From Felis catus (lineage: Eukaryota): a DNA stretch of 64,000 bases. The position numbers and the translations under genes were made by a program. A model generated the notes under the pieces. The model saw nothing but the letters and a program-made list of their open reading frames with translations, had not been told where the DNA came from and did no database searches. Where the stretch lies: NCBI RefSeq assembly GCF_018350175.1, contig NC_058368.1:83764001-83828000 (forward strand), in the 5' to 3' direction. Each line of letters starts with the position of its first letter. Positions within the stretch are counted from its first letter, which is position 1. Shown here piece after piece: positions 8,691 to 64,000 of this stretch.

Positions 8691-10225
8691 AGAGGGAAGA
8701 TGGAGGTGAAGTAGGAGGACCTTAGGTTCATCTCCTCTCATAAACACAATTAGAAAACTATCAAATAATCCTAGGTACCCCAGAAATTAATCTGAAGACT
8801 GACAGAACACACTCCATAACTAAAGGGAGAGAAGAAGCCACATCAAAAAAGGTAAGAAGTGTGGAGACATGGCTTAGGGAAAAAATGGATCAAGAGTGTG
8901 GTGGAGGTCAGGAAACTATGATTGCTAAGAAGGGAAAGAGAGAGCAGAGCACACAGGGTAACACACACAAATATATTCCCAAGCCATTCAGGAGCTGAAT
9001 TTCATGAGTTATTGAAGCCAGCAAGGCTTAAAGTCTGGAATTTTAAAGGTCATCAGGCTTGGTAGGATAGATCCCTGAAGGCACTGTACTGTTCCTGGAG
9101 AGAAGGCAGGCAAACACCCTGAGGGGCAGATGATGTGGAAACAGAAATATGAAGAATGCCTGGGGCACACAGAGGGGAGATTATTAACACTTCTCAGAGT
9201 ATCTCCCTGAGAGGCAATCTTCAGGGAGATGCCTCTTCCTTAACAAAGAAGCTGCCTGGAGAAATTTCCTTCCCCTACTCCTCAGCATAAACATGGAGCC
9301 ACCTGCAAGAAGCAGCACAGTACCAAAACTGGCTGCAAACTTGCTTACACCAAGAACCACATTTCTGAGCATTGTCAAGACTTCCCTTCTCAGACAAGTT
9401 TGCCTCAATCCCAGTGCAGTGGGCCCGTCTCCCAGAAGACCAGGACAAAACTCAGCCCAAATCACATTTCCCTCCCAGAGAGTTCTGCAAGGCATCAGTT
9501 CTAGAAGTAGTATCAGGTCTCTTAATAAGCAGACCAGAGCATAGTTAGTTAAACTCACTGTATTGAGGCCAAGTACCAAACACTGCATATAGCAGGCAAG
9601 GAAATCCTCTACAGATGATTGATCTGAAGGACAGAACAGCCAAAACAGAGCAGCAGAATACATGCAGGACACACCAGGCCCTGGACACTCTTCATAAAGC
9701 CATTACTTTCAGGAGCAGGAAACATAACTGGCTTTTCTAACACAGAGACGGTAGAAACTTAGATAAAATATCAAGACAGAAAAATTCATCCCCCGCCCCC
9801 CAAAATAACATAAGGACACTGCATGGGAAGACCCATAAGTCTAGTTGCATATTTCTCAACAGAAACTCGACAAACCAGCAGGGATTTTCACAATATATTC
9901 AAAGTGATGCATGGGAAAAATCTGCAGCCAAAAATACTCTATCCAGCAAGGCTATCTTTCAGAATATAAGGAGAGATAAAGAGTTTCCCATACAAATGAA
10001 ATCTAAAGGAGGTCATGACCACTAAAGCAGTTCTTCAAGATATATTAAAGGGGACTCTTTGAGTTGAAAGGAAACACCAAAAGTGACAAAGATAATAAAG
10101 TATCAGAGAAAATCTACAGAAGATAAGGCAAACAAGTAATAAAGTGGAACTAAATACATATTTATCAATAAGTAAACACATCATTGTAAATAGACTAAAC
10201 CCTTCAATCAAAAGACATAAAGAAT

Positions 10226-38331: not shown

Positions 38332-40063
38332 TGGCACATCAGTAGGCACCATTTCTCTCCCTTGCCACTCAACATAAATGCAGAGCCACATGCCAAGGAC
38401 AGTGAAGCCCCAATACTTGCTGCCTAGCCTGTTTTCTCCAACTCCCACTCCAATGCACTCTTACACAGCTGCCTTTATTGGTCAAACCTCCTTAATCCCA
38501 GTGTGGTGAAATCACCCTCTGGAAGACCAGGGCAGTCTTATGCTTACACCAGGTCCCTAATGCCTGGAGTTTTAAAGACAGAAGGCTTGACTGACAGATA
38601 TCCCAGAGGGAACTACAATGCTCCTGGAAGGAGGTAGGAAAACATCCCAGAGGTAGACAGATTGAAAAAAGTAATTAAAAAATGCCTGGGGCACACAGAA
38701 GGGGAGATTATTCACTCTTCAAGGAGTGTTTCCTGAGAGCAACAAGCAGGGATCCCTCTCCAGTGACAAGAGTTGGCTGGTACCATTTTCCTACACAACC
38801 CTTCAGCATAAACACATAACCACCATTGATAAACAGCAAAGCCCTAAGACTGGCTGCCTAACATGTGAAAACAAGTTCCCACAGCACAGTGTCCTGCCAG
38901 TATGGCCCTTCTTAGTTAAGTTTGCATGAGGCCCTGCACAGTGGATCCTTCCCCAGAAGACCAGCAGAAACCCCTGCCCACACCTTATCCCAACCAGAGT
39001 TCTACAAGGCTATTGGAAGTACCACCAATGAACACCTAGTTAAGACTTGCCAAACTCTAGAAAAAGGCAAAACATTGCCCACTGTAGGCAAGGAGAACCT
39101 CCAAATAAGAATGGTCTGAAAGATAGAGAAGTCGAAACACCACAGCAGAGTGCACACAGCACACATCAGAGACTCCCTCTGAAGTGCCAGGTCCTGGATA
39201 TTATATGACCTCTTCCTCATAAAGCCATTACTCTCAGGAGCAAGAAATGTAAGAGGCTTTTCTAACAATCAGAAGAATACAGAGACTTAGAGAAAGAGCC
39301 AAGATGGAAGAATTCATCCCAAATGAAACAAGATAAGGTCATAATCAGATTCTAAGCAAAACAGATATAAGTAATATTGCTGATGGAGAATTTAAAACAG
39401 CAGTCATAAAGATACTCACTGGGCTTGAAAAAGAATGGAAGACATCAAGGAGCCCCTTAACACAGTGATAAAAGAGTTAAAAAACAAGTAGTCAGAAATA
39501 AAGAATGCAATAACTGAGATGAATGAAAACAAGGATGGAGGAAGCAAGGAACAAGTAAGTGATATAGTAGATGAAGTAATGGAAAATGATGAAGCTGAAC
39601 AAAAGAGAGAAAGAATTGTGGAACACAAAAGGAAACAGGAAGCTCAGTGATCCCCATCAAACGTAATAACATTCATATTATAGGAGTTCCAGAACAAGAA
39701 GAGAGAAAAAAAGAGGTGAAAAAATTATTTGAGAAAGTAATAGCTGCAAACATCTTTACTCTGGGGAAGGAAACAGACATCCACATCCAGGAAGGCACAG
39801 AAAACTTCCATGAAAATCAGCAAAAGCAGGCAAACACCAAGACATATTGCAGTTAAATTTACAAAATATAGCAATAAAGAAAAAATCTTAAAAACATCAA
39901 GAAAAAAGAAGTCCTTAACTTACGAGGGAAGACCCACAAGGCTAGCTGTATATAGCTTCATAGAAACATGGCAAGCCATACTAAAAGTACTTTAAGGGAA
40001 AAATCTGCAGTCAAGAATATTCTATGTGGCAAGTATATCATTCAGAGTAGAAAAAGAGATAAA

Positions 40064-40898: not shown

Positions 40899-42786
40899 TT
40901 AGTCCATCCTAAAACAGCAGAATATACATTTTTTTTCCAATTGAAAATGGGAAATTTTCCAGAATAGATCACATACTAAGTCACAAATCAGTCCTCAACA
41001 AGTCTCAATAGATTGAGACTGTACCATGCATTTCTTTTTCTCTGAGTATGATGCTATAAAACTTGAAGTTAACCACAGTAATATGTGGAAAGACCATGAA
41101 TACATGGGGGTAAAATATCATACTACTAAACAATAAAGGGGTCAGCCAGAAATTCAAAGAATAAATTTTAAAAAATACACACAAACAAATGAAAAAAGAA
41201 AAAAAAATGGCCCAAATCCTTTGGGATGCAACAAATGTGGTCCTAAGAGGGAATTATACAGGAATACAGGGATATCTTAGAAAGCAACAAATCTTAAATA
41301 AAAACCTAGCTTCTACATAAAGGAACTAGAAAAATATCAACAAAAGACCCCTAAAGCCAGCAGAAAGAATGAAGAAATAAATATTAGAGCATTAACAAAT
41401 AATATAGAAAATAAATAAATAAATAAATAAATAAATAAACAAACAAACAAATAAGATGAATGACACCAGGAGCTGGTTTGTTGAAAAAAATAATGCAATT
41501 GATAAACCCCTAACCAGGCTTAGAAAAAACAGAAAAGACCCACATATATAAAATAACAAAAGAGAGAGAAAAAATAACAATCAACAGCACAGAAATATAA
41601 ATAATTATAACAGAATATTATAAAATAAAATATGCCAACAAATTTGACAACCTGGAGAAATAGATAAATTCTGAGAAATTAGTAACCTACCACAACTATA
41701 ACAGGAAGAAATAGAAAACTTGAACAGACTGTGAACCAGCAAAGAAATTGAATCAGTAATCAAAAAACTCCCAAGAGGGGGATGAGTGAAGATGGCTGGA
41801 CAGCATGGAAGCTTTTTGTGTCTCGCGTCCATGAAATACAGCCAGACCAACACTAAACCATCCTACACACCTAGAAAACTGGAGGATTAACACAACAATC
41901 TGCACAACCTGAACCACAGAATTCAGCAGGTATGCTTCACAGACAGTTGAACTTTGGGAGCAAGAAGCCACGAAAGGTAGGGAACTGCTTTTGCGGGTGG
42001 AAAGAGGACAGAGACTGGGGAGAGGGGGAGAATATGGGAAAAGCACCCCTCCCTAAAAGTGCTGCAGAGAAAGTGGAAAATTGGAAACAGCTGCAGGGAC
42101 TAAACTAAAAAGGGAGAAAGGAGAGGGTTTAAATTCCATTAAGACTGTAAACAAGGGGAGAGCAAAGGCTGAAACTCTGCAGCTCAATACCTGGCGGTGC
42201 TCTGGAGGGGAGGGTGAATCCCCAGGAACAGAGTGGGTCCTGGGAGGTTCTCAGGCCACACAAGGAAAAGTGATTCCACTGCTGGAAGGACATTTGGTAG
42301 AGACTGTTGAAGCCACCTGGTCCCAGCAGACCCCAGAAGGTGGCCACATTCACTGGTGCTGAGGCAAGGTATTTAAGGGTGAAGCCTGGTGCTAGATGTG
42401 TGTTGTGATTTTCATAATCCCTGAAATGCTGCTGCTACACTGTCTCACAAACTTTTTCTGGGGTGGGCTGGCACCTGGCCACAGTCTCGAGGCACCAGCA
42501 GCAGCAGGGTCCAGCAGGCATTTCTGGGTACAGCTGACATTCAGCCATTGCTCATTTGGCCATTGCTCAGTGAGACCCTCCTGCAGAAGGGCAGAATGGG
42601 ACAAAGCCACAGTCCTTCAGAAATAAGGGGCCGGAGAAAACAGCTGTAACTGAGACAAAACTTGGTAGAGAGGTACTGGCTGGGACATGGTCATGGAGAG
42701 TGAAAAAGCGGGCAGTAGACGAGAGCTGAAGACAGAGGACGGGTGCATGATTGCTGATCCAGGAGAATAGACGGTAGCTGGGTGGA

Positions 42787-42815
42787 GCCATTTTCACCTC
42801 TCCCGCGCATGCGCA
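42787..42815 (+). promoter_or_regulatory. YY1-like (gccatttt) and NRF1 palindrome (cgcgcatgcgca) motifs in the L1-G 5'UTR
   Basis: Exact match to YGCGCAYGCGCR at 42804-42815; motif match only. Confidence 0.45.
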
Positions 42816-43049
42816 TATGCACCTAACAGCACTGCAACAAGCCCCCCCAGTAGGCTAGCAGCGCCATCTATTGGAAAGCACAGCTGTTACACTGAGCCCC
42901 GCCCAACTGGGCCAACTTCTCTCTTCAAGAGCACAAGTCTCACTGCCAGCTTAATTTATGGACTACAAAGAGCTACATAGACTGGCTCCTAGGGGAAAAT
43001 GAAGTAGTTTCAGTCCTACTTTAATCTGTTACTATGTTCATTTATTCAA

Positions 43050-43740
43050 TTTTTTTTATTTTTCTTTTTTCTTCTTCTCTTTTAAAATTCTTTAATTTTT
43101 CTTGAATACAGAAAGAAAAAATTAATTTTTATTTTCAATTTTTGTTAAAAATATCTTTCATTTTTATTACTATATTTTTACTTTTGTGTAATTTTTTTCA
43201 AATTCTACTTCCATCATTTTATTTTAGTCTACTTCAGTCTATTCACCTTTCCAATTTTTCAAACAATTTCCTTTTTTTATTTCTTTTCCTTTTTTCTCTT
43301 TTTAATTCATTTTTCTTGAATGCAGAAAGAGAAAAAAAATCATTTTTACTTTCAATTTCTAATAAAAATATTCTTATTTAATTTTAATTACTATATTTTT
43401 TGCTTTTATGTAAATTATTTAAATTATATTTTACTTCCATCCTTTTATTTTAGTATTCTACAGAGTTTGCACTTTTTCAAATTTTCAAATGATTTATTTT
43501 TTATCATTCTTTTTTTCTCTTTTTCATCATTTTTCTCTTTTTCATTTTTCTTTTTTTCTTAAATACAGAAAGCGAAAAAATTCATTTTTATTTTTACTTT
43601 TTATTAAAAATATTTTAATTTTTTCTACTATATTCTTTACTTTTGTGTATATTTTTCAAATTCTATTTTACCCTCAACATCTCATTTTAGTCTATTTCAG
43701 TGTATTCAATTTTTCAAACTATCAAATGATTTCCTTCCCC
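43050..43740 (+). repeat. Three T-rich tandem units (about 215-245 bp) in the L1-G 5'UTR
   Basis: Anchor ctt(g/a)aat(a/g)cagaaag recurs at 43101, 43315 and 43558. Confidence 0.85.
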
Positions 43741-43918
43741 CCCACTTTTGTTTTCTCTAATCTGTCAAACCAATTTCAACAGTCAGTCCAAAACACACCT
43801 AGGATCTAACATCATCTATTCGATATGTGTGTGTGTGTTTAATTTTAATTTTAATATTTAAATTTTAATGTTTTCTTAATTTAATTTTTCTACCTCATTA
43901 ATATTTCCTCCATTCAAA

Positions 43919-44780
43919 ATAACAAAAAAAAAGAATTCACCCCAAAAGAAAGAGCATGCAGAAATGACAGCCAGGAATTTAACCAACACAAATAAAAGCA
44001 AGATGGCTGAACAAGAATTTAGAATCACAATAATAAGAATACTAACTGGAGTCAAAAATACATTAGAATCCTCTGCAGAGATAAAAGAAGTAAAAAAAAA
44101 ACAGTCAGAATGAAATTAAAAATGCTATAACTGAGCTGCAATCATGGATGGATGCAGTGGCGCCACGGATGGATGAGGCAGAACAGAAAATCAGTGATAA
44201 AGAGGACAAACTAATAGAGAATGATGAAACAGAAAAAAAGAGGGAGATGAAGACAAAGCATAATAAGAATTAGAGAAATCAGTGATGCATTAAAAGGAAC
44301 ATCAGAATCAGGGGTCCGAGAAGAGGAAGAGAGAGAAATAAGGGTAGAAAGGTTATGTGAGCAAATCATAGCAGAAAAATTTCCTAACCTGGGGAAAGAC
44401 ACAGACAGCAAAATCCAGGAAGCACAGAGGACCCCCATTCGATTCAACAAAAATCAACCAGCAACAAGGCATATCATAGTCAAATTCACAAAATTCTCAG
44501 GCAAGGAGAGAATCATGAAAGCAGCAAGGGGAAAACAGTCCCTAACTTACAAGGGAAGACAGATCAGGTTTGCAGCAGACCTCTCCACAGAAACTTGGCA
44601 GGCCAGAAAGAAGGGGTGGGATATATTCAGTGTGCTGAATCAGAAAAATATGCCTCCAAGAATTCTTTATCCAGCGAGTGTGTCATTCAAAATGCAGAGA
44701 TAAAAAGTTTCCCCCCAAAAAATTAAAGGAGTGTGTGACCACTAAACCAGCCCTGCAAGAAATTTTAAGGGGACTCTCTG
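43919..44780 (+). pseudogene. L1-G ORF1 remnant
   Basis: MKAARGKQSLTYKGRQIRFAADLSTETWQARK...RILYPA. Confidence 0.88.
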
Positions 44781-44790
44781 AGGGGAGAAA

Positions 44791-44843
<53 letters not shown>

Positions 44844-44919
44844 AATAAATACCAAGAGCAACAAAGATTAGAAAGGACCAGAGAACACCACCAGAAACTC
44901 CAACTCTACAAGCATCATA

Positions 44920-47900
44920 ATGGCTATAAATTCATATCTTTCAGTACTCACTCTAAACATCAATGGACTCAATGCTCCAATCAAAAGACATAGGGTAACT
45001 GAATGGGTAACAAAACAAGATATATGTATATGCTATTTACAAAAGACCCACTTTAGACCTAAAGGCACCGACAGATTGAAAATAGGGGGATGGAGAACCA
45101 TCTACCATGCTAATGGTCCACAAAAGAAATCCAGAGTAGCCATACTTATATCAGACAATCTAGACTTTAAAATGACTGTATCAAGAGATGAAGAAGGGCA
45201 TTATATCATAATCAAGGGGTCTATACACCAAGAAGACCTAACCATTGTAAAAATTTATGCACCAAATGTGAGAGCACACAGATATATAAATCAAGTAATC
45301 ACGAACATAAAGAAACTCTTCGATAGTAATACCATAATAGTAGGAGACTTCAACACCCCACTCACAGCAATGGACAAATCATCTACTCAAAATATCAACA
45401 AGAAACAATGGCTTTGAATGAAACACTGGACCAGATGGACTTATTCATAACATTTCATCCTAAAGCAGCAGAATATACATTCTTCTCAAGTGCACATGTA
45501 TTGGTCTCCAAAATAGACCATATACTGGGACACAAATCAGCCCTAAGTAAGTACAAAAAGATTGAGATCATACCGTACTTATTTTCAGACCACAATATTA
45601 TAAAACTCAAAATCAATCACAAGAAAGAATATGGAAAGGTAAAAAATACTTGGAGACTGAAGAACATCCTACTAAAGAATGAATGGGCTAACCAAGAATT
45701 TAAAAAGGAAATTAAAAAGCATATGGAAGTCAATGAAAATGATAACACCACAACCCCAAACCTAGGGATGCAGCAAGGTCGGTCATAGGAAAGAAAGTAT
45801 ATACCAATCCAGACCTTCCTAAAGAAGGAAGAAAGATCTCAGATGCACAACCTAAACTTATGCCTTAAGGAGCAGGAAAAAGAACAGCAAATGAAACCCC
45901 AAACCAGCAGAAGACAGGAAATAATAAAGATTACAGCAGAAGAATGCTATCAAAACCAAAAAACAAAAAAACAAAAAAAAAAAAAAAAACAAAAAACAGT
46001 AGAACAGACCAATGAAACCAGAAGCTGATTCTTTGAAAGAATTAACAAAATTGATAAACCAGTAGCCAGTTTGATAAAGGAGAACAAGGAAAGGACCCAA
46101 ATAATAAAATCAAGAATGAAAGAGGAGAGATCACAACCAACACAACAGAAATAAAAGCAATACTAAGAGAATATTATGAGCAATCATATGCCAATAAAAT
46201 GGGCAATCTGGAAGAAATGGTCAAATTCCTAGAAACATATACACTACCAAAACTGAAACAGGAAGAAACAAAATTTTAACAGACCCATAACCAGTAAGGA
46301 ATCGAATTAGTAATCAAAAATCTGCCAAAAAACAAGAGTCCAGGGCCAGATGGCATTCCAGGGGAATTCTACCAAACATGTAAGGAAGAGGTAACACCTA
46401 TTCTCTTGAACTGTTCCAAAAAATAGAAATGGAGGGAAAACTTCAAAACTCTTTCTATGAAGCCAGCATTACCTTGATCCCCAAACCAGAAAGAGACCCC
46501 ACTCAAAAGGGGAACTATAGACAAATTTCCCTGATAAAAATGCATGCAAAAATACTCAACAGGATATTAACCAACCAGATCCAAGAATACATGAAGAAAA
46601 TTATTCACCACGACCAAGTGGGATTTATACCTGGGATGCAGGGCTGGTTCAATATCTGCAAAAAAATTAACGTGATTCATCATATCAATAAAAGAAAGGA
46701 CAAGAAACATACGATCCTCTCAAAAGATGCACAGAAACCATTTGACAAAATACAGCATCCTTTCTTGATAAAAACCCTCAAGAAAGTAGGCATAGAAGGA
46801 GCATACCTCGAGATCATAAAAGCCATATATAAACGACCCAATGCTAATATCATCCTCAATGGGGAAAAACTGAGAGCTTTCCCCCTAAAGTCAGGAGCCA
46901 GACAGGGATGTCCACTCTTGCCATTGTTATTCAACGTAGTCCTGGAAGTCGTAGCCTCTGCAATCAGACAACACAAAGAAATAAAAGGCATCCAAATGGG
47001 CCAGGAGGAGGTCAAACTTTCACTCTTCGCAGATGACATGATACTCCATATAGAAAACTCAAAATATTCCACAAAAAAAATGGTAGAATTGATTCATGAA
47101 TTCAGCAAAGTCGCAGGATATAAAATCAATGCATCGAAATCGGTTGCATTCCTATATACCAACAATGAAGTGACAGAAAGAAAAATCAAGGAATTGATCC
47201 CATTTACAGTTGCACAAAAACCCATAAAATACCTAGGAATAAATCTAACCAAATTGGTGAAAAATCTATAAACTGAAAACTCTAGAAAGCTTATGAAAGA
47301 AATTGAAGAAGACACAAAAAAATGTAAAAAGATTCCATGCTCCTGGATAGAAAGAACAAATAGTGTTAAAATGTCAATACAACCCGAAACAATCTACATA
47401 TTCAATACATTCCCTATCAAAGTAACACCAGCATTCTTTACAGAGCAAGAACAAAGAATTCTAAAATTTGTATGGAACCAGAAAACACCCAAATAGCCAA
47501 AGCAATCTTGAAAAAGAAAACCAAAGCAGGAGGCCTCACAATCCCTGACTTCAGGGTATACTACAAAGCTGTAATCATCAAGACAGTACAGTACTGGATG
47601 AAGAACAGACATTCAGATCAATGGAACAGAATAGAGAACCCAGAAATGGACACACAAACCTATGGCCAAGTAATCTTTGACAAAGCAGGAAAGAATATCC
47701 AATAGAATAAAGACAGTCTCTTCAGCAGGTGGTCCTGGGAAAACTGGACAGTGACATGCAGAAGAATAAACCTGGACCACTTTCTTACACCCTACACAAA
47801 AATAAACTCAAAATGGGTGAAAGACCTAAATGTAAGACAGGAAGCCATCAAAATCCTCTGGGAGAAAGCAGGCAAAAACCTCTTTGATCTTGGGCACAGA

Positions 47901-48760
47901 AACTTCTTACTCAACACGTCTCTGGAGGCATGGGAAACAAAAGCAAAAATGAACTACTGCGACCTCGTCAAAATAAAATCTGCACAGTGAAGGAAACAAT
48001 CAGCAAAACTAAAAGGCAATGGACAGAATGCGAGAAGATATTTGCAAGTGACATATCAGATAAAGGATTAGTACCCAAAACCTATAAATAACTTATCAAA
48101 CTCAACACCCAAAAAACAAATAATCCAGTAAAGAAATGGGAAAAGACATGAATAGACACTTCTCCAAGGAAGACATCCAGATGGCCAACTGACACATGAA
48201 AAAATGCTCAACATCACTCATCATCAGAGAAATACATATCAAAACCACAATGAGATCTCACCTGACACCTGTCAGAATGGCTAACATTAACAACTCAGGC
48301 AACATCTGATGTTGGCTTGGATGAGGAGATAGAGGATCTCTTTTGCATTGTTTGTGGCAATGCAAGCTGGTGCAGCCACTCTGGAAAACAGGATGGAGGT
48401 TCCTCAAGAAACTAAAAATAGAACTACCCTAAGACCCCATAATTGCACTACTAGGCATTTATCCACGGGATACAGGTTTGCTGTTTTGAAGGGACACATG
48501 CACCCCAATGCTTATAGCAGCACTATCAACAATAGCCAATAATGGAAAGAGCCCAAATGTCAATCGATGGATGAATGGATAAAGAAAATGTGGCATATAT
48601 ATATATATGTAAACACACAATGGAGTATTACTCGGCAATCAAAAAGAATGAAATCTTGCCATTTGCAACTACATGGATGGAACTGGAAGGTGTTATGCTA
48701 AGTGCAATTAGTCATTGAGAGAAAGACAAAAATCATATGACTTCACTCATATGAGGACTT
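44920..48760 (+). pseudogene. L1-G ORF2 (EN 44920-45788, RT core 46429-47271, C-terminal domain), frameshifted
   Basis: [66 protein letters not shown]. Confidence 0.95.
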
Positions 48761-49376
48761 TAAGAGACAAAACAGATGAACATAAGGGAAGGGACACAAA
48801 AATAATGTAAAAACAGGGAGGGGGACAAAAAGGAAGAGACTCATATATATGGAGAACAAACTGAGGGTTGCTTAAGGGGTTGTGGGAGGGAGGATGGGCT
48901 AAATGTGTAAGGGGAACTAAGGAATCTACTCCTGAAATCATTGTTTCACTATATGCTAACTAATTTGGATGCAAATTTTAAAAAATAAAAAAATTAAATT
49001 AAAAACAAAACTCCCAGGAAACCAAAGTCCAAGGCCAGATGGATTTACAGACAAATTCTACCAAATCTTGAAAGAATAGTTAATACCTGTTCTTCTGAAA
49101 CCATTCAAAAAAGTAGAAATGGAAGGAGAAGTCCCAAATTCATTCTAAGGTTTCAACTTTAACCTGATACTAAAACTAAAAAAGATTCCACAAAAAAAGA
49201 AAACTACAGGCCAATATACCTGATGAAAATGGATGCAAAAATTGTCAATAAAATACCAGCAAATCATTTTCAACAGTACACTAAAAGAATCATTCACCAT
49301 GGTCAAATGGAATTTATTAGCGGCTACAAGTGTAGTTAAACATTCACAAATCAATTAACATAATATACTAAGAAAA

Positions 49377-50743: not shown

Positions 50744-50930
50744 GGGGATCTTGCGTGGCTCAGTTGGTTAAATGTCCAAGTCTTGGTTTCGACTCAGGTC
50801 GTAATTTCACAGTTTGTAAGACTGAGCTCTATGTTGAGCTCTGTGATGACAGCATGGAGCTTGCTTGGGATTCTCTCTCTTTCTATCTCTGCCCCCACCT
50901 CTCTCTCTTAAAGTAAATAAATAAACTTGA
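50744..50930 (+). mobile_element. Can-SINE
   Basis: ggggatcttgcgtggctcag head; degenerate TSD aaagcataaaaca / aaagcaagaata. Confidence 0.88.
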
Positions 50931-54322: not shown

Positions 54323-57300
54323 CCCTCCTTTTTAGTAGGATCTTATTCTGGTTTTGGAATAAAGGTAATCCCCGGCTTTAAGAATGAGTTTGGAAGCTTT
54401 TCTTCTATTTCTATTTTGTGGAACAGTTTGAGCAGAACATGTATTAACTTCTTTAAATGTCTATTAGACATTTAAATTCCCCTGTGAAGCCACCTGGTCC
54501 TGGACCCTGCTTCATTGGGAGATTTCTGATCACCGATTCCATTTATATGCTGGTTATATGTCTGTTCAAATTGTCTATTTTTTCCTGTTTCAGTTTTGGT
54601 AGTTTGCATGTTTCTAGGAATTTGTTCATTTCTTCCAGATTTCCCCGGTTGTTGGCATATAATTTTTCATAATATTCTCTTATGCTTATTTGTATTTCTG
54701 TGGTATTGATTCTGATCTCTTGCCCTTCATTCATGACTTTACTTGGGTTCTTTCTTTTTTCTTTTTGAAAATCTAGAGAGGGGCTTGTCGTTTTAATTAA
54801 TTTCTTCAAAGAACCAACTCTTAGTTTGTTGATCTGTTCTATTGTTTTTTTTTTTGTTTTTGTTGTTGTTGTTTTGTTTCTATTTCATTTATTTCTGCTC
54901 TAATCTTTATTTCCCTTCTTCTTCTGGCTTTAGAGTTTATTTTCTGTACGCTTTCTAGTCCCTTTATCTGTAATGTCAGGTTACATATTGAGACTTTCTT
55001 CCTTCTTGAGGTAGGTTTGTATTGCAATACACTTCCCTCTTAGGACTGCCTTTGCTGCATCCTAAAGTTTTCAGACCATCATGGTTTCATTTTCATTTGC
55101 TTCCATGTATTTTTTTTATTTCTTCTTTAGTTTCTTGGTTAATCCATTCATTATTTATAGGATGTTATTTTGCTCCATGTAATTGTTGTCTTTCTTGTGG
55201 CTGACTTCAAGTTTCATAGTTTTGTGGTCTGAAATTATGCATGGTATTATCTCGATTTTTTTGTACTTGTTGAGCACTGATTTTGGACCCAGTATATGAT
55301 GTATTCTGTAGAAAGTTTCATGTGCACTTGAAAAGAATGTGTATTCTGCTGCTTTAGAATGAAGTGTTGTGAATATATCTGTTAAGTCTTTCCAGTGTAG
55401 AGTGTCATTCAAAGCCATTGTTTTCTTATTGATTTTCTGCTTAGATGATCTGTAAATTACTGTAAGTGGGGTATTAAAGTCCCTGCTATTATTGAAATTG
55501 TGTCTGTTGTTAATTGGTTTGTATATTTTCAGGCTTTCTAGTTGGGTGCGTATGTATTTTCAGTTGTTTGATCTTAGTGGATAGACCCTTACAATGCCTT
55601 TCTTCATCTCCTGTCTGTCTTTTTTATAAAATCTAGTTTGTCTGTTATAAGTATGGCTACTCCAGCTTTCTTATGATGTCCATTATTATGACTGATGTTT
55701 CTCCATCCCCTTACTTTCAGTCTACTTTCAGCCTAGTTGTCTCTGGGTCTCAGATGAGTGTCTTGCAGGCAGCATATAGATGGGTCTTTTTTTTGTCCAT
55801 TCTGATTCCTTATTTCCTTTTACTGGAGCATTTAGTCTATTTACATTCAGAGTGGTTATTGAAAAAAATGAATGTTGTACCATTGTGTCACCTGTAGAGT
55901 TGGTGTTTCTGGTGATATTCTCTGTTCCTTTCTAGTCTTTATTGTTTGTTTTTGTTCCCATTCAGAGAGTCCCCTTTAATATTTCTTGCAAAGTTGATTT
56001 AGTGGGAACAAGCTCCTTTAGTTTTTGTTTGTCTGGAAAACTTTTTATCTCTATTTTGGTTCTGAATGACAGCCTTGCTGGATAAAGTATTCTTGGATGC
56101 ATATTTATCCATTCAGAGTGTTGAATATATCCTGTCATTCCATTATGGCCTGACAAGTTTCTGTGGACATATTTGCTCTGAATCTGATTTGTCTTGCCTT
56201 GTAAGTTAAGACCTTTTTTTTTCCCCTTCCTGCTTTCAGGATTCTTTCCTTGTCAGTGTATTTTGTGAACTTGACTATGACATGTCTAGGTGATGGTTGG
56301 TTTTTTGCTGAATTTAATTAGAGTTATCTGTGCTCTTGGATTTTGATGTGTTTATCCTTCCCAGATTAAGGAAGTTTTCGGCTACGATTTGCTCAAATAA
56401 ATATTCTGCCCTTTTTTCTATCTCTTTCTCTTCTGTGACTCTTTGATAAAAATGTTATTACGTTTTTAGAAGTTGCTGAGTTTTCTATGTCTAACTTTGC
56501 AATCCAATACCTTTCTCTCCTTCTTCAATTCAGCTTCATTAGTCACCATTATATTTTCTCCGGTATCACTGGTTCATTTATCCATTTCATCCATCTTCAT
56601 TGTTATGGCATCCATTTGGGATTACATCTTGGTTGTAGCATTTCAACTTCAGTCTGACTAAATTTTAGTTCTTTCATCTCTGCAGTAAAGGATTCTTTAG
56701 TGGTTTCTAAACCACTTTTTTTAAGCACAGGTAGTATCCTTGTAATTGTTGTTTAAAATTCTAGTTCAGACATCTTACTTATATCTGTATGGATTAAATC
56801 CCTGGCTGTAATTTCTAGTTCTTGTTTTTTCTTTTGTGGTGAATTCCTCGATCTTGTCATTTTGTCTAGGAAAAAAAAAAACAATCTTTCCCCCGAGAAA
56901 CAAAAAAATAACAACTAGATCCTAGGTGTGTTTTTGTATGCTTGTTATAAGAAACTAGAGCCAAATAATAATAATAATAATAATAATAATAATTTTATTA
57001 TTGAAATTATATAATGTAATATATATTATATATATTTGATACAATGTCTTTCTTCATATCTTGTTACTGTCTTTTTTTGTAAAATATAATTTATTATATA
57101 CGTATATATATTAAAAATTAAAAAAAATAAATTTAAAAATAAAAAAGTAAAAATAAGAGGGAAGCTAGATCCTTTTCCCTTAGAGCTGAAGTTTTGGAGC
57201 ACTCTATTGTTAGTAGTCTTGGTTTCTGTGAATGGTTTGTTTTGTGAGTGGTTTGTTCTGGTATTTTGAGTGAGGGACCTGATGTGCTAATTCTGAGTCT

Positions 57301-59498: not shown

Positions 59499-59625
59499 TT
59501 TTGGCTCAGGTCATGATCTCATGGTTTGTGATTTCAGGCTCCACATTGGGCCCTGTGCTGGCAGCAAAACCTGCTTGGGATTCTCTCTCTCTCTCTCTCT
59601 CTCTCAAAATAAATAACTAAACATT
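59499..59625 (+). mobile_element. 5'-truncated Can-SINE
   Basis: ttggctcaggtcatgatctc...(CT)n aaaataaata. Confidence 0.85.
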
Positions 59626-61669: not shown

Positions 61670-61747
61670 ATTTTTAAAAGTTTATTTGTTTATTTTGAGA
61701 GTGGAAAGGGGGAGAGAGAGGGAGGAAGAGACAAAATGCCAAGCAGT
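61670..61747 (-). mobile_element. Can-SINE 3' fragment (head deleted)
   Basis: aagtttatttgtttattttgagag...gagagaggg...ccaagcag. Confidence 0.7.
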
Positions 61748-61759
61748 TTGAGTTTGATG

Positions 61760-63652
61760 AGTTGATTTCGAGTTTCATAGCAGTGTGATCTGAAAATATG
61801 CACGGTATGATCTTGATATTTTTGTACTTACTTAGGGATGATTTGTGTCCCAGTATATGGTCTATTCTGGAGAACGTTCCATGTGCACTGGAGAAGAATG
61901 TATATTCTGCTGCTTTAGGATGAAATGTTATGAATAAGTCAATCTGGTCCAGTGTGCCATTCAAAGCCAATGTTTCTTTGTTAATTTTTTGATTAGATGA
62001 TCTGTCCATTGCTGTAAGTGGGGTGTTGAAGTCCCTACTATTATGGTATTACTATCGATGAGTTTCTTTATGTTTGTGATTAATTGATTTACATATTTGG
62101 GTGCTATCACATTTGGCACATAAATGTTTACAATTGTTAGGTCTTCTTGGTCTATAGACCCCTTGATTATGATATAATGCCCTTCTTCATCTCTTGATAT
62201 AGTCTTTATTTTAAAGTCTAGGTTGTCTGATATAAGTATGGCTACTCCAGCTTTCTTTTGTTGACCATTAGCATGATAGATGGCTCTCCATCCCCTTATT
62301 TTCAATCTGTAGGTATCTTTAGGTCTAAAGTGGGTCTCTTATAAACAGCATATAGATGAATCTTTTTTTCTTATCCATTCTGTTACCCTATGTCTTTTGA
62401 TTGCAGCAATGAGTCCATTGACGTTTAGAGTGAGTATTGAAAGATATGAATTTATTGTCATTATGATGCTTGTAGAGTTGGAGTTTCTGGTGGTGTTCTC
62501 TGGTCCTTTCTAATTTTGCTGCTTTTGGTGTATATATATATATATATTTTTTTTTTCACCTTTTCTCCCCTCAGAGAATCCTCCTTTAAGTTTCTTGCAG
62601 GGCTGGTTTAGTGGTCACAAACTCCTTTAAATTTTGTTTGTCTGGGGAACTTTTAATCTCTCCTTCTATTTTAAGTGACAGCCTTCCTGGATAAAGAATT
62701 CTTGGATGCATATTTTTCTGATTCAGCACATTGAATATATCCTGCCACTCCTTTCTGGCCTGACAAGTTTCTGTGGATAGGTCTGCTGCAAACCAGATTT
62801 ATCTTCCCTTTTTCATTAAGGATGTTTTTTTCCCTTGTTGCTTTCATGATTCTTTCCTTAACTGAATATTTTCTAAAATTAACTATGATATGCCTTGTTG
62901 ACTGTTGGGTTTTGTTGAATGTAATGGAAGTCCTCTGTGTTTCCTGGATTTTGATGTCTGTGTCTATCCCCAGGTTAGGAAAGTTTTCCACTATGATTTG
63001 CTCACATAACCCTTCTACCCCTATTTCTGTCTCTTCCTCCTCTGGGACCCCTATGATTCTGAGGTTGTTCCTTTTTAATGAGTCACTGATTTCTCTAATT
63101 CTTAAATCATGCTCTTTTCCCTTAATCTCCCTCTTTTTTTCTGCCTTATTATTCTCTATAAGTTTGTCCTAGATATTGCTGATTCTCTGTTTTGCTGATT
63201 CTCTGTTCATTCATCTTTGCCACCGCTGCATCCATCCATGATTGCAGCTCAGTTATAGCATTTTTAATTTCATTCTGGCTATTTTTTACTTCTTTTGTCT
63301 CTGCAGAAAGGGATTCTAATGTATTTTTGACTCCAGCTAGTATTCTTATTATCGTGATTCTAAATTCTGGTTCAGACATCTTGCTTGTATCTGTGTTGGT
63401 TAAATCCCTGGATGTCGTTTCTTTGTGCTCTTTCTTTTGGGGTGAATTCCTTTTGGAGCTTCTTGCTCCCCAAATTCAGCTCTTCATGTCTCATACCTGC
63501 TGAATTCTGTGGTTCAGGTTGTGCAGATTGTTGTGTTAATCTTCCAATCAGTTTTCTAGGTGTGTAGGATGACTTAGTGTTTGTCTGGCTCTACTACATG
63601 GACATGAGACACACAAAAAGCTTCCATGCTGTTCTGCCATCTTGGCTCCTTC
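61760..63652 (-). mobile_element. L1-J: L1-G-family element with a ~1.96 kb 5'UTR deletion (candidate spliced copy), 3'-truncated within EN
   Basis: 5' start gccaagatggcagaacagcatggaagc matches L1-G; about 200 nt of UTR joined directly to ORF1; EN ORFs 61961-62305 and 61674-62009. Confidence 0.92.
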
Positions 63653-64000
63653 AGCAGGCAAACAATCTTGAGGCCACAGTGTGGAAACAACAATTTGAAA
63701 AAAGCCTGGTCCACACAAGGAGCAGATTATTCATTCATCTCCGAGTGCTTACCTGAGAGCAATGGGCACAGAGACCCCTCTCTGGAGACAAGCTGGCTAA
63801 ATACATTTTCCTCCACCAACCTTCAGTATAAACACAGAAGTAAACAGCAAAGCTGCATAACCTGCTTACACCAAATTCGACATGTCTGTGCTGTCACCAC
63901 TGCCCTTCTAAGTCAAGTTTGCCTCAGTCCCAGAGCAATGGGTCTTTTACCCTGAGAACCAGCACTCTCCAGTGTTGAAATTCCTGCCAACACCACAGCT
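63653..64000 (+). mobile_element. L1-K: 5'UTR fragment of the L1-A/F type, runs off the window
   Basis: gcaggcaaaca...gtggaaaca...gattattca...aagtttgcctcagtcccag parallels 9105-9440. Confidence 0.8.

Follow-up and report, generated by a model that had tools for sequence, protein, structure and literature searches.

The question raised by this locus is how a LINE-1 (L1) copy in the domestic cat came to lose most of its 5'UTR together with the start of ORF1 while its extreme 5' end was kept. The copy, here called L1-J, lies on the minus strand (63652 to about 61762) of a window of 64,000 nucleotides from Felis catus (contig NC_058368.1, positions 83,764,001 to 83,828,000), which is the whole stretch of DNA that was analysed. 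A previous sequence-only reading had proposed a felid equivalent of SpIREs, i.e. of L1 RNAs that were first spliced and then retrotransposed. Our results supported this proposal, both through the AG state of the acceptor in the family and through joins to the same acceptor in two database peptides (P0026 and P0118). L1-J is likely a copy that was reverse-transcribed from an RNA from which splicing had dropped 1,956 nt.

Anatomy of L1-J and of related copies

On the minus strand, the L1-J junction reads ...gaagctccaaaag/gaattcaccccaaaag at 63450/63449 (a slash within a sequence marks the border of an exon or of a join). Its sibling L1-G displays ...gaagccacgaaag/GTAGGG at 41976/41977 and gaattcaccccaaaag at 43933. 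L1-J joins the equivalent of G 41789-41976 to that of G 43933 onward, with 1,956 nt skipped, and alignment to G gave 84.6% identity on the exon-1 side (G 41789-41977) and 85.4% on the body side (G 43928-45616). In G, the skipped piece has GTAGGG as its first bases and extends over the first two bases of ORF1 codon 5. Its absence removes the ORF1 start codon from J, where the next in-frame ATG stands at 63379 and corresponds to residue 29 of the family protein. Junction, length of the skip and downstream ATG had all been given in the sequence-only reading, and each of them was recovered when the sequence was read again, in agreement with the alignment.

The skip and its ends are direct observations, and so is the complete 5' end of J, which starts about 8 nt before an AAGATGG motif, as do G and the leaders of database peptides P0115, P0124 and P0125. 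L1-J is an old copy (85% identical to its sibling G), dead and 3'-truncated inside ORF2 at about 61762. From its position, the remaining ORF2 piece is presumably the endonuclease region. Coordinates are collected in Table 1.

Table 1. Features of L1-J, of its flanks and of the related copies L1-G and L1-I (positions are those of the window).
Feature	Position	Strand	Remarks
L1-J exon-1 equivalent	63450..63652	-	complete L1 5' end, about 203 nt; sharp border with old-L1 flank at 63654
Junction AAAG/GAATTC	63449..63450	-	donor 2 joined to third base of ORF1 codon 5; same join in P0026
Donor 1 in J, donor-like CAG/GTATGA	63491..63499	-	last exon base 63497; homologous site joined to same acceptor in P0118
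Leader reading frame	63375..63599	-	spans junction in a frame other than that of ORF1; J has two stops near its beginning; search probe
ORF1 remnant of J	62571..63449	-	without start codon, decayed; peptide 77-83% identical to L1 ORF1 proteins named for lion and cat
ORF2 5' piece of J	61762..62461	-	abrupt end; alignment to G ends at G 45616-45622; start placed by eye
Filler and SINE tail	61670..61761	-	about 14 nt filler, then carnivore SINE 3' tail with A-rich end; marks loss of J 3' part
Older L1 5'UTR-like flank	63654..63965	+	J inserted into it; 68% identity to 9106-9446 and 38664-38966
Sibling L1-G	41777..49015	+	full length, A-rich tail, target-site duplication about aaaaactccca; ends approximate
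Donor 1 in unspliced G, CAG/GTATGC	41927..41935	+	last exon base 41929
Donor 2 in G, AAG/GTAGGG	41974..41982	+	last exon base 41976
Intron equivalent in G	41977..43932	+	1,956 nt, covering most of the 5'UTR and the first 14 nt of ORF1
Acceptor context in G	43803..43932	+	130 nt without AG; G itself AA at -2/-1
ORF1 start of L1-I, more distant than G	56840..56860	-	GAG/GAATTC at homologous site (56846)

Element G was itself inserted, in the same orientation and with a target-site duplication, inside ORF2 of an older L1. The end of its 5'UTR (43047-43736, plus strand) is a T-rich tandem array, with units of about 220-226 nt that are 74-80% identical, and this array forms part of the long intron equivalent. 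The ORF1 start of G (43919-43933, plus strand) has become a run of A (codons ATA ACA AAA AAA AAG, followed by AAT), with several G-to-A changes relative to the family by which both the ATG and the acceptor AG were lost.

Splice signals in the family

The sequence-only reading had pointed out that G reads AA before the acceptor position, that L1-I displays GAG/GAATTC at the homologous site and that J retains a donor-like CAG/GTATG upstream; all three were borne out, the last site (CAG/GTATGA) lying 47 nt before the junction. It had also called for the state of the family before GAATTCACC to be checked, and this was approached through peptides. ORF1 peptides, taken from 25 database matches, start with M-T-K-(R or Q)-R-N-S-P-Q-K. 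Codon 5 specifies Arg in 10 of the 11 peptides that cover it (Met in the eleventh), and its first base must be A, given five frameshifted M-K-E starts. Together with a codon ending in G, these observations point to AGG as the family codon and to AAG/GAATTC as its acceptor. The family state before GAATTCACC is thus likely AG, as deduced from peptides and not from DNA, and the AA of G a private change. In L1-I, AG is seen at the acceptor site directly in DNA.

At donor 2, the site at the J junction, Lys followed by Val-Gly (K/V-G) was found in 14 of the 38 in-register leader peptides, and V-G, whatever residue precedes it, in 20 of them; the remaining ones displayed substitutions, frame shifts or the states of other subfamilies. 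Upstream of the G acceptor, branch-like motifs occur (CTCAT with its A at -36, and TTAAT at -32) and pyrimidines reach 73% between -50 and -20, a result of limited weight since it comes from a simple motif scan in T-rich DNA. The T-rich stretch devoid of AG can be read directly in G, and because it extends over the preceding 130 nt the acceptor would be the first AG to follow it. The acceptor has A at -3, and its pyrimidine stretch stops about 20 nt short of it; acceptors of the AAG type are less common than CAG or TAG ones, a point against the splicing reading.

A further motif, AACCACA, which we take to be a RUNX-like consensus, is located about 10 nt before donor 1 in J (63507-63515, minus strand) as well as in G (about 41914-41920). 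In human L1, the donor overlaps a RUNX3 site, as described in the accessible text of PMC5860796. The cat motif is short enough that its place before donor 1 may be due to chance.

Recurrence of the join in database peptides

Recurrence was probed at the protein level with the leader reading frame, which runs across the join in a frame that is not that of ORF1. Searches yielded 117 distinct peptides, of which 111 carried the leader anchor and 106 extended at least 12 residues past it. Among the latter, 97 continued into unspliced 5'UTR, two jumped into the L1 body, one ran into unrelated sequence and six did neither. Both jumps into the body, which are again direct observations, land at the acceptor of J. 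Peptide P0026, in which 9 of 75 residues are not those of J, displays the join of J itself (donor 2). In P0118, a donor 47 nt upstream (CAG/GTA) is connected to the same acceptor, in the frame predicted for such a join; this peptide is found on four contigs, the longest of 7,241 bp, and its join bypasses a 7-nt GAATTCA microhomology located just 5' of its donor. P0026 and P0118 are peptides without flanks, each join being placed within about 5 nt, and they could be derived from RNA; such an origin would still show that the sites work, not that retrocopies were formed.

The J junction, whose uniqueness the sequence-only reading had proposed to check, is therefore not unique, as the same join stands in P0026. 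The upstream donor had been raised there as a caveat. The site is indeed present, but it does not hold as an objection: joined to the same acceptor in P0118, it supports splicing, and two donors connected to one acceptor favour splicing over a DNA deletion. Protein matches were named for lion, cat, lynx, hyaena and Prionailurus. A search of 1.84 billion representatives gave 33 matches, including 16 new identifiers, and no further join.

Several other candidates were discarded. An origin of P0118 by re-splicing of a J-type RNA was rejected, since it carries G at a leader-frame position that is R in both J and P0026, and a 47-nt intron is too short to splice. The L1 match of P0127 gives way to unrelated sequence a few residues short of donor 2, and P0075 and P0138 end in what we take to be an adapter-like peptide; none of the three was counted as a join. 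P0115, whose L1 match ends at donor 1, was not counted either. This peptide (GAB5570122.1) is an NCBI gene model of Prionailurus named olfactory receptor 4S1 and consists of the L1 leader frame; it is likely a misannotation, or may perhaps have arisen by splicing from donor 1 to an exon of the host. ORF1 peptides starting with MSEPEF are starts chosen by gene callers and provide no evidence of splicing.

Other rearrangements of the leader were recorded in P0062 (internal skip) and P0119 (downstream leader sequence placed before exon-1 sequence). The family leader (window 41777-42100, plus strand; peptides P0026-P0141) holds a long sense frame of about 100 codons (M-K-Y-S-Q-T-N...), whose open stretch in P0115 starts close to the 5' end and which is picked by gene callers in more than 100 copies. 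Selection by gene callers may be the reason for this long frame. Scans of other collections were uninformative, as these hold little mammalian DNA: the acceptor motif was found in no viral contig and in three metagenome contigs, none of them window-like, and the junction peptide gave 82 pattern matches in prokaryote genomes and 104 in viral contigs, with no relative confirmed.

One ancestral event or several

The common join of J and P0026 could also go back to one event, both being orthologues or descendants of a single spliced or deleted copy, multiplied by duplication or by retrotransposition with ORF1p provided in trans. J and P0026 differ at 6 of 50 exon-1 residues, against 7-16 between J and 14 unspliced relatives and 5-15 between P0026 and the same relatives. 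In the probe frame they also have in common two residues that fit CpG decay, Met at position 36 and Gln at 59. The nine changes of P0026 are too many for an allele in the organism whose sequencing runs cover about 75% of the words of the stretch (about 1.6 residues expected, P about 4e-5). An orthologue from a distantly related feliform would accommodate them (with a divergence of 4.5-6%, nine or more changes have P 0.35-0.68). Against a single origin, the exon-1 changes that depart from the subgroup majority are mostly private (five in J and three in P0026), Met or Ile at position 36 is also encountered in 5 of the 14 unspliced relatives, and P0118 requires a separate event anyway. We regard a single origin as an appreciable possibility, albeit an unlikely one. 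It would be compatible with splicing, but P0026 would then no longer count as independent support.

A broader reading, which we consider rather improbable, would extend to an older feliform L1 family as a whole. Its strong acceptor in ORF1 codon 5 would be fed by two leader donors, start-less spliced copies would make up around 2% of its 5'-complete copies, and these copies would form a small non-autonomous subfamily, or would move in cis with an ORF1p started at Met29, instead of being rare dead ends. Around 2% would be about ten times the share of the human 5'UTR/ORF1 class (SpIRE97/976; 11 of 6,609 full-length primate L1s, Larson et al. 2018, PMC5860796, in its accessible text), with the reservation that the 2 of 99 classifiable peptides behind it are not a frequency estimate, the probe being biased in favour of spliced copies.

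Splicing versus loss at the DNA level

A short aagg microhomology had been put forward in the sequence-only reading as a possible cause of a deletion. The 4-nt AAGG is indeed common to the two ends of the J junction (inferred family state), and it would allow a microhomology-mediated loss, either by repair deletion or by a jump of the reverse transcriptase at insertion, to have joined two AAG/G sites, the GT-AG borders being a by-product of the shared AGG. Joins of the AG/G type always carry short homology, and a second rearrangement, with filler, is present where J breaks off on its 3' side, both of which agree with such a loss.

Deletions were simulated between G 41790-42300 and G 43800-44200 (n=150,626). 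A GT-AG fit was obtained in 487 of them (0.3%), in 32 of the 3,130 with at least 3 nt of microhomology (1.0%) and in only 12 of the 634 with 4-nt homology (1.9%), figures that overstate rarity because J was selected for its spliced look. The weight accordingly rests on P0118, which was found afterwards and needs the same acceptor together with a second GT site. Both leader-to-body joins (2/2) use one acceptor from two different GT sites, and longer homologies of 7 nt nearby (GAATTCA and CCAAAAG) were left unused. As a feature of the junction the microhomology stands; as its cause it is less favoured, owing to these unused homologies and to the shared acceptor, and a loss of this kind has little chance of being the right explanation.

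Gene conversion of a full-length L1 at the locus by a spliced cDNA, the intron being lost in place, would yield an identical join, and any marks of insertion are hidden by the loss of the 3' end. We give it a very small chance, since no positive sign of it was seen and the process is rarer than the human SpIRE route as described in the accessible text of PMC5860796. An assembly artefact is practically negligible: the join recurs in an independent database peptide with 9 of 75 residues different, and fourteen sequencing runs from seven studies cover about three quarters of the words of the stretch 63200-63900 (shares 0.73-0.76, which do not show that junction words are among those covered; RNA runs with shares of 0.14-0.68 were left out of the evidence).

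Lost 3' end and proposed history of L1-J

Beyond its truncation point, J is followed by filler and by a SINE tail that aligns to other SINE tails of the window at 50860-50930 and 59560-59625. The A-rich end near J belongs to this tail and not to J. The filler, of about 14 nt, resembles the L1 bases just before it. Two events would fit this boundary: a deletion sealed by end joining with a templated insert, or the insertion of a truncated SINE accompanied by loss of target DNA. Neither a poly(A) of its own nor a target-site duplication was found near the end of J, whose 3' part is missing along with the matching flank, and the other half of the older L1 flank was not found beyond J. The marks of retrotransposition are consequently not readable at J, and the non-contiguous flanks together with the absent 3' marks indicate a DNA-level loss at this locus. 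An inversion by twin priming was rejected, as what precedes J on its 5' side is the leader of an older L1 and not the 3' part of J.

The retrocopy of a spliced RNA, which remains the favoured explanation, would have arisen as follows. A full-length member of the family would have been transcribed from its 5' promoter, and its RNA spliced from AAG/GTAGGG to the AG of the AGG codon for Arg5. From this start-less RNA, only an ORF1p shortened by 28 residues could have been made; if human SpIRE97/976 is a guide, the RNA would have needed the ORF1p of another L1. Target-primed reverse transcription would then have inserted it into the older L1, and a later deletion, or one at the time of insertion, would have taken away the 3' part of J and a flank. 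A copy of this type would be a dead end.

Comparison with known spliced L1 copies

Judging by its sequence, L1-J likely belongs to the 5'UTR/ORF1 class of SpIREs. Five of the defining features of this class were found, and none failed: a GT donor in the family, an AG acceptor in the family (deduced from peptides), a branch and pyrimidine context, a complete 5' end and the loss of the start codon. The mechanism is already known from human L1, of which spliced genomic copies were first reported by Belancio et al. 2006 (as cited in the accessible text of PMC5860796), and L1-J would be a carnivore case of it. By title and opening of the abstract, no report of spliced retrotransposed L1 copies in carnivores was found, though subscription papers, Repbase/Dfam or supplements may hold one; the term SpIRE is likewise absent from the accessible part of a 2026 review on canine retrotransposons (PMC13756887).

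Although J is a single copy, dead and truncated, it would, if correctly interpreted, mean that a carnivore L1 with a leader of its own independently came to have its RNA spliced into ORF1 and then retrotransposed, and that an old fossil record was left there. Splicing would then appear as a general cost to mammalian L1s instead of a quirk of the primate promoter. The exact donor and acceptor sites are now available for counting such copies in cat assemblies and RNA.

A different type of SpIRE, RAP1GDS1/L1PA2, co-opted a host promoter and demonstrates that daughter copies can arise from a SpIRE (bioRxiv 10.1101/2025.02.02.635956, accessible text), which bears on the shared parent considered above for J and P0026. 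It is a primate element spliced within the 5'UTR, with intact ORFs, and no sign of a co-opted promoter was seen at J. Human intra-5'UTR SpIREs (97/622, 97/790 and 97/853) are likewise retrotransposed spliced L1 RNAs, but they keep ORF1 and can move in cis, whereas the join of J removes the ORF1 start (PMC5860796 and PMC5860798, accessible texts).

The closest known counterpart is human SpIRE97/976, which needs ORF1p from another element (PMC5860796, whose accessible text also underlies the comparisons below). In both, an early GT donor of the 5'UTR is joined to an AG inside an early codon of ORF1, and J, like its human counterpart, is 5'-complete, has lost the ORF1 start with most of the leader and is left with a downstream Met only. 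The L1 family and its leader are different, the 1,956 nt removed represent a longer intron, and J is old, without 3' end and known from sequence alone, whereas human SpIREs were assayed. The donors of the J family are located at about nt 156 and 203 instead of 97, and its acceptor lies in Arg5 instead of Lys22. Human L1 combines one donor with several acceptors, whereas the felid family combines two donors with one acceptor.
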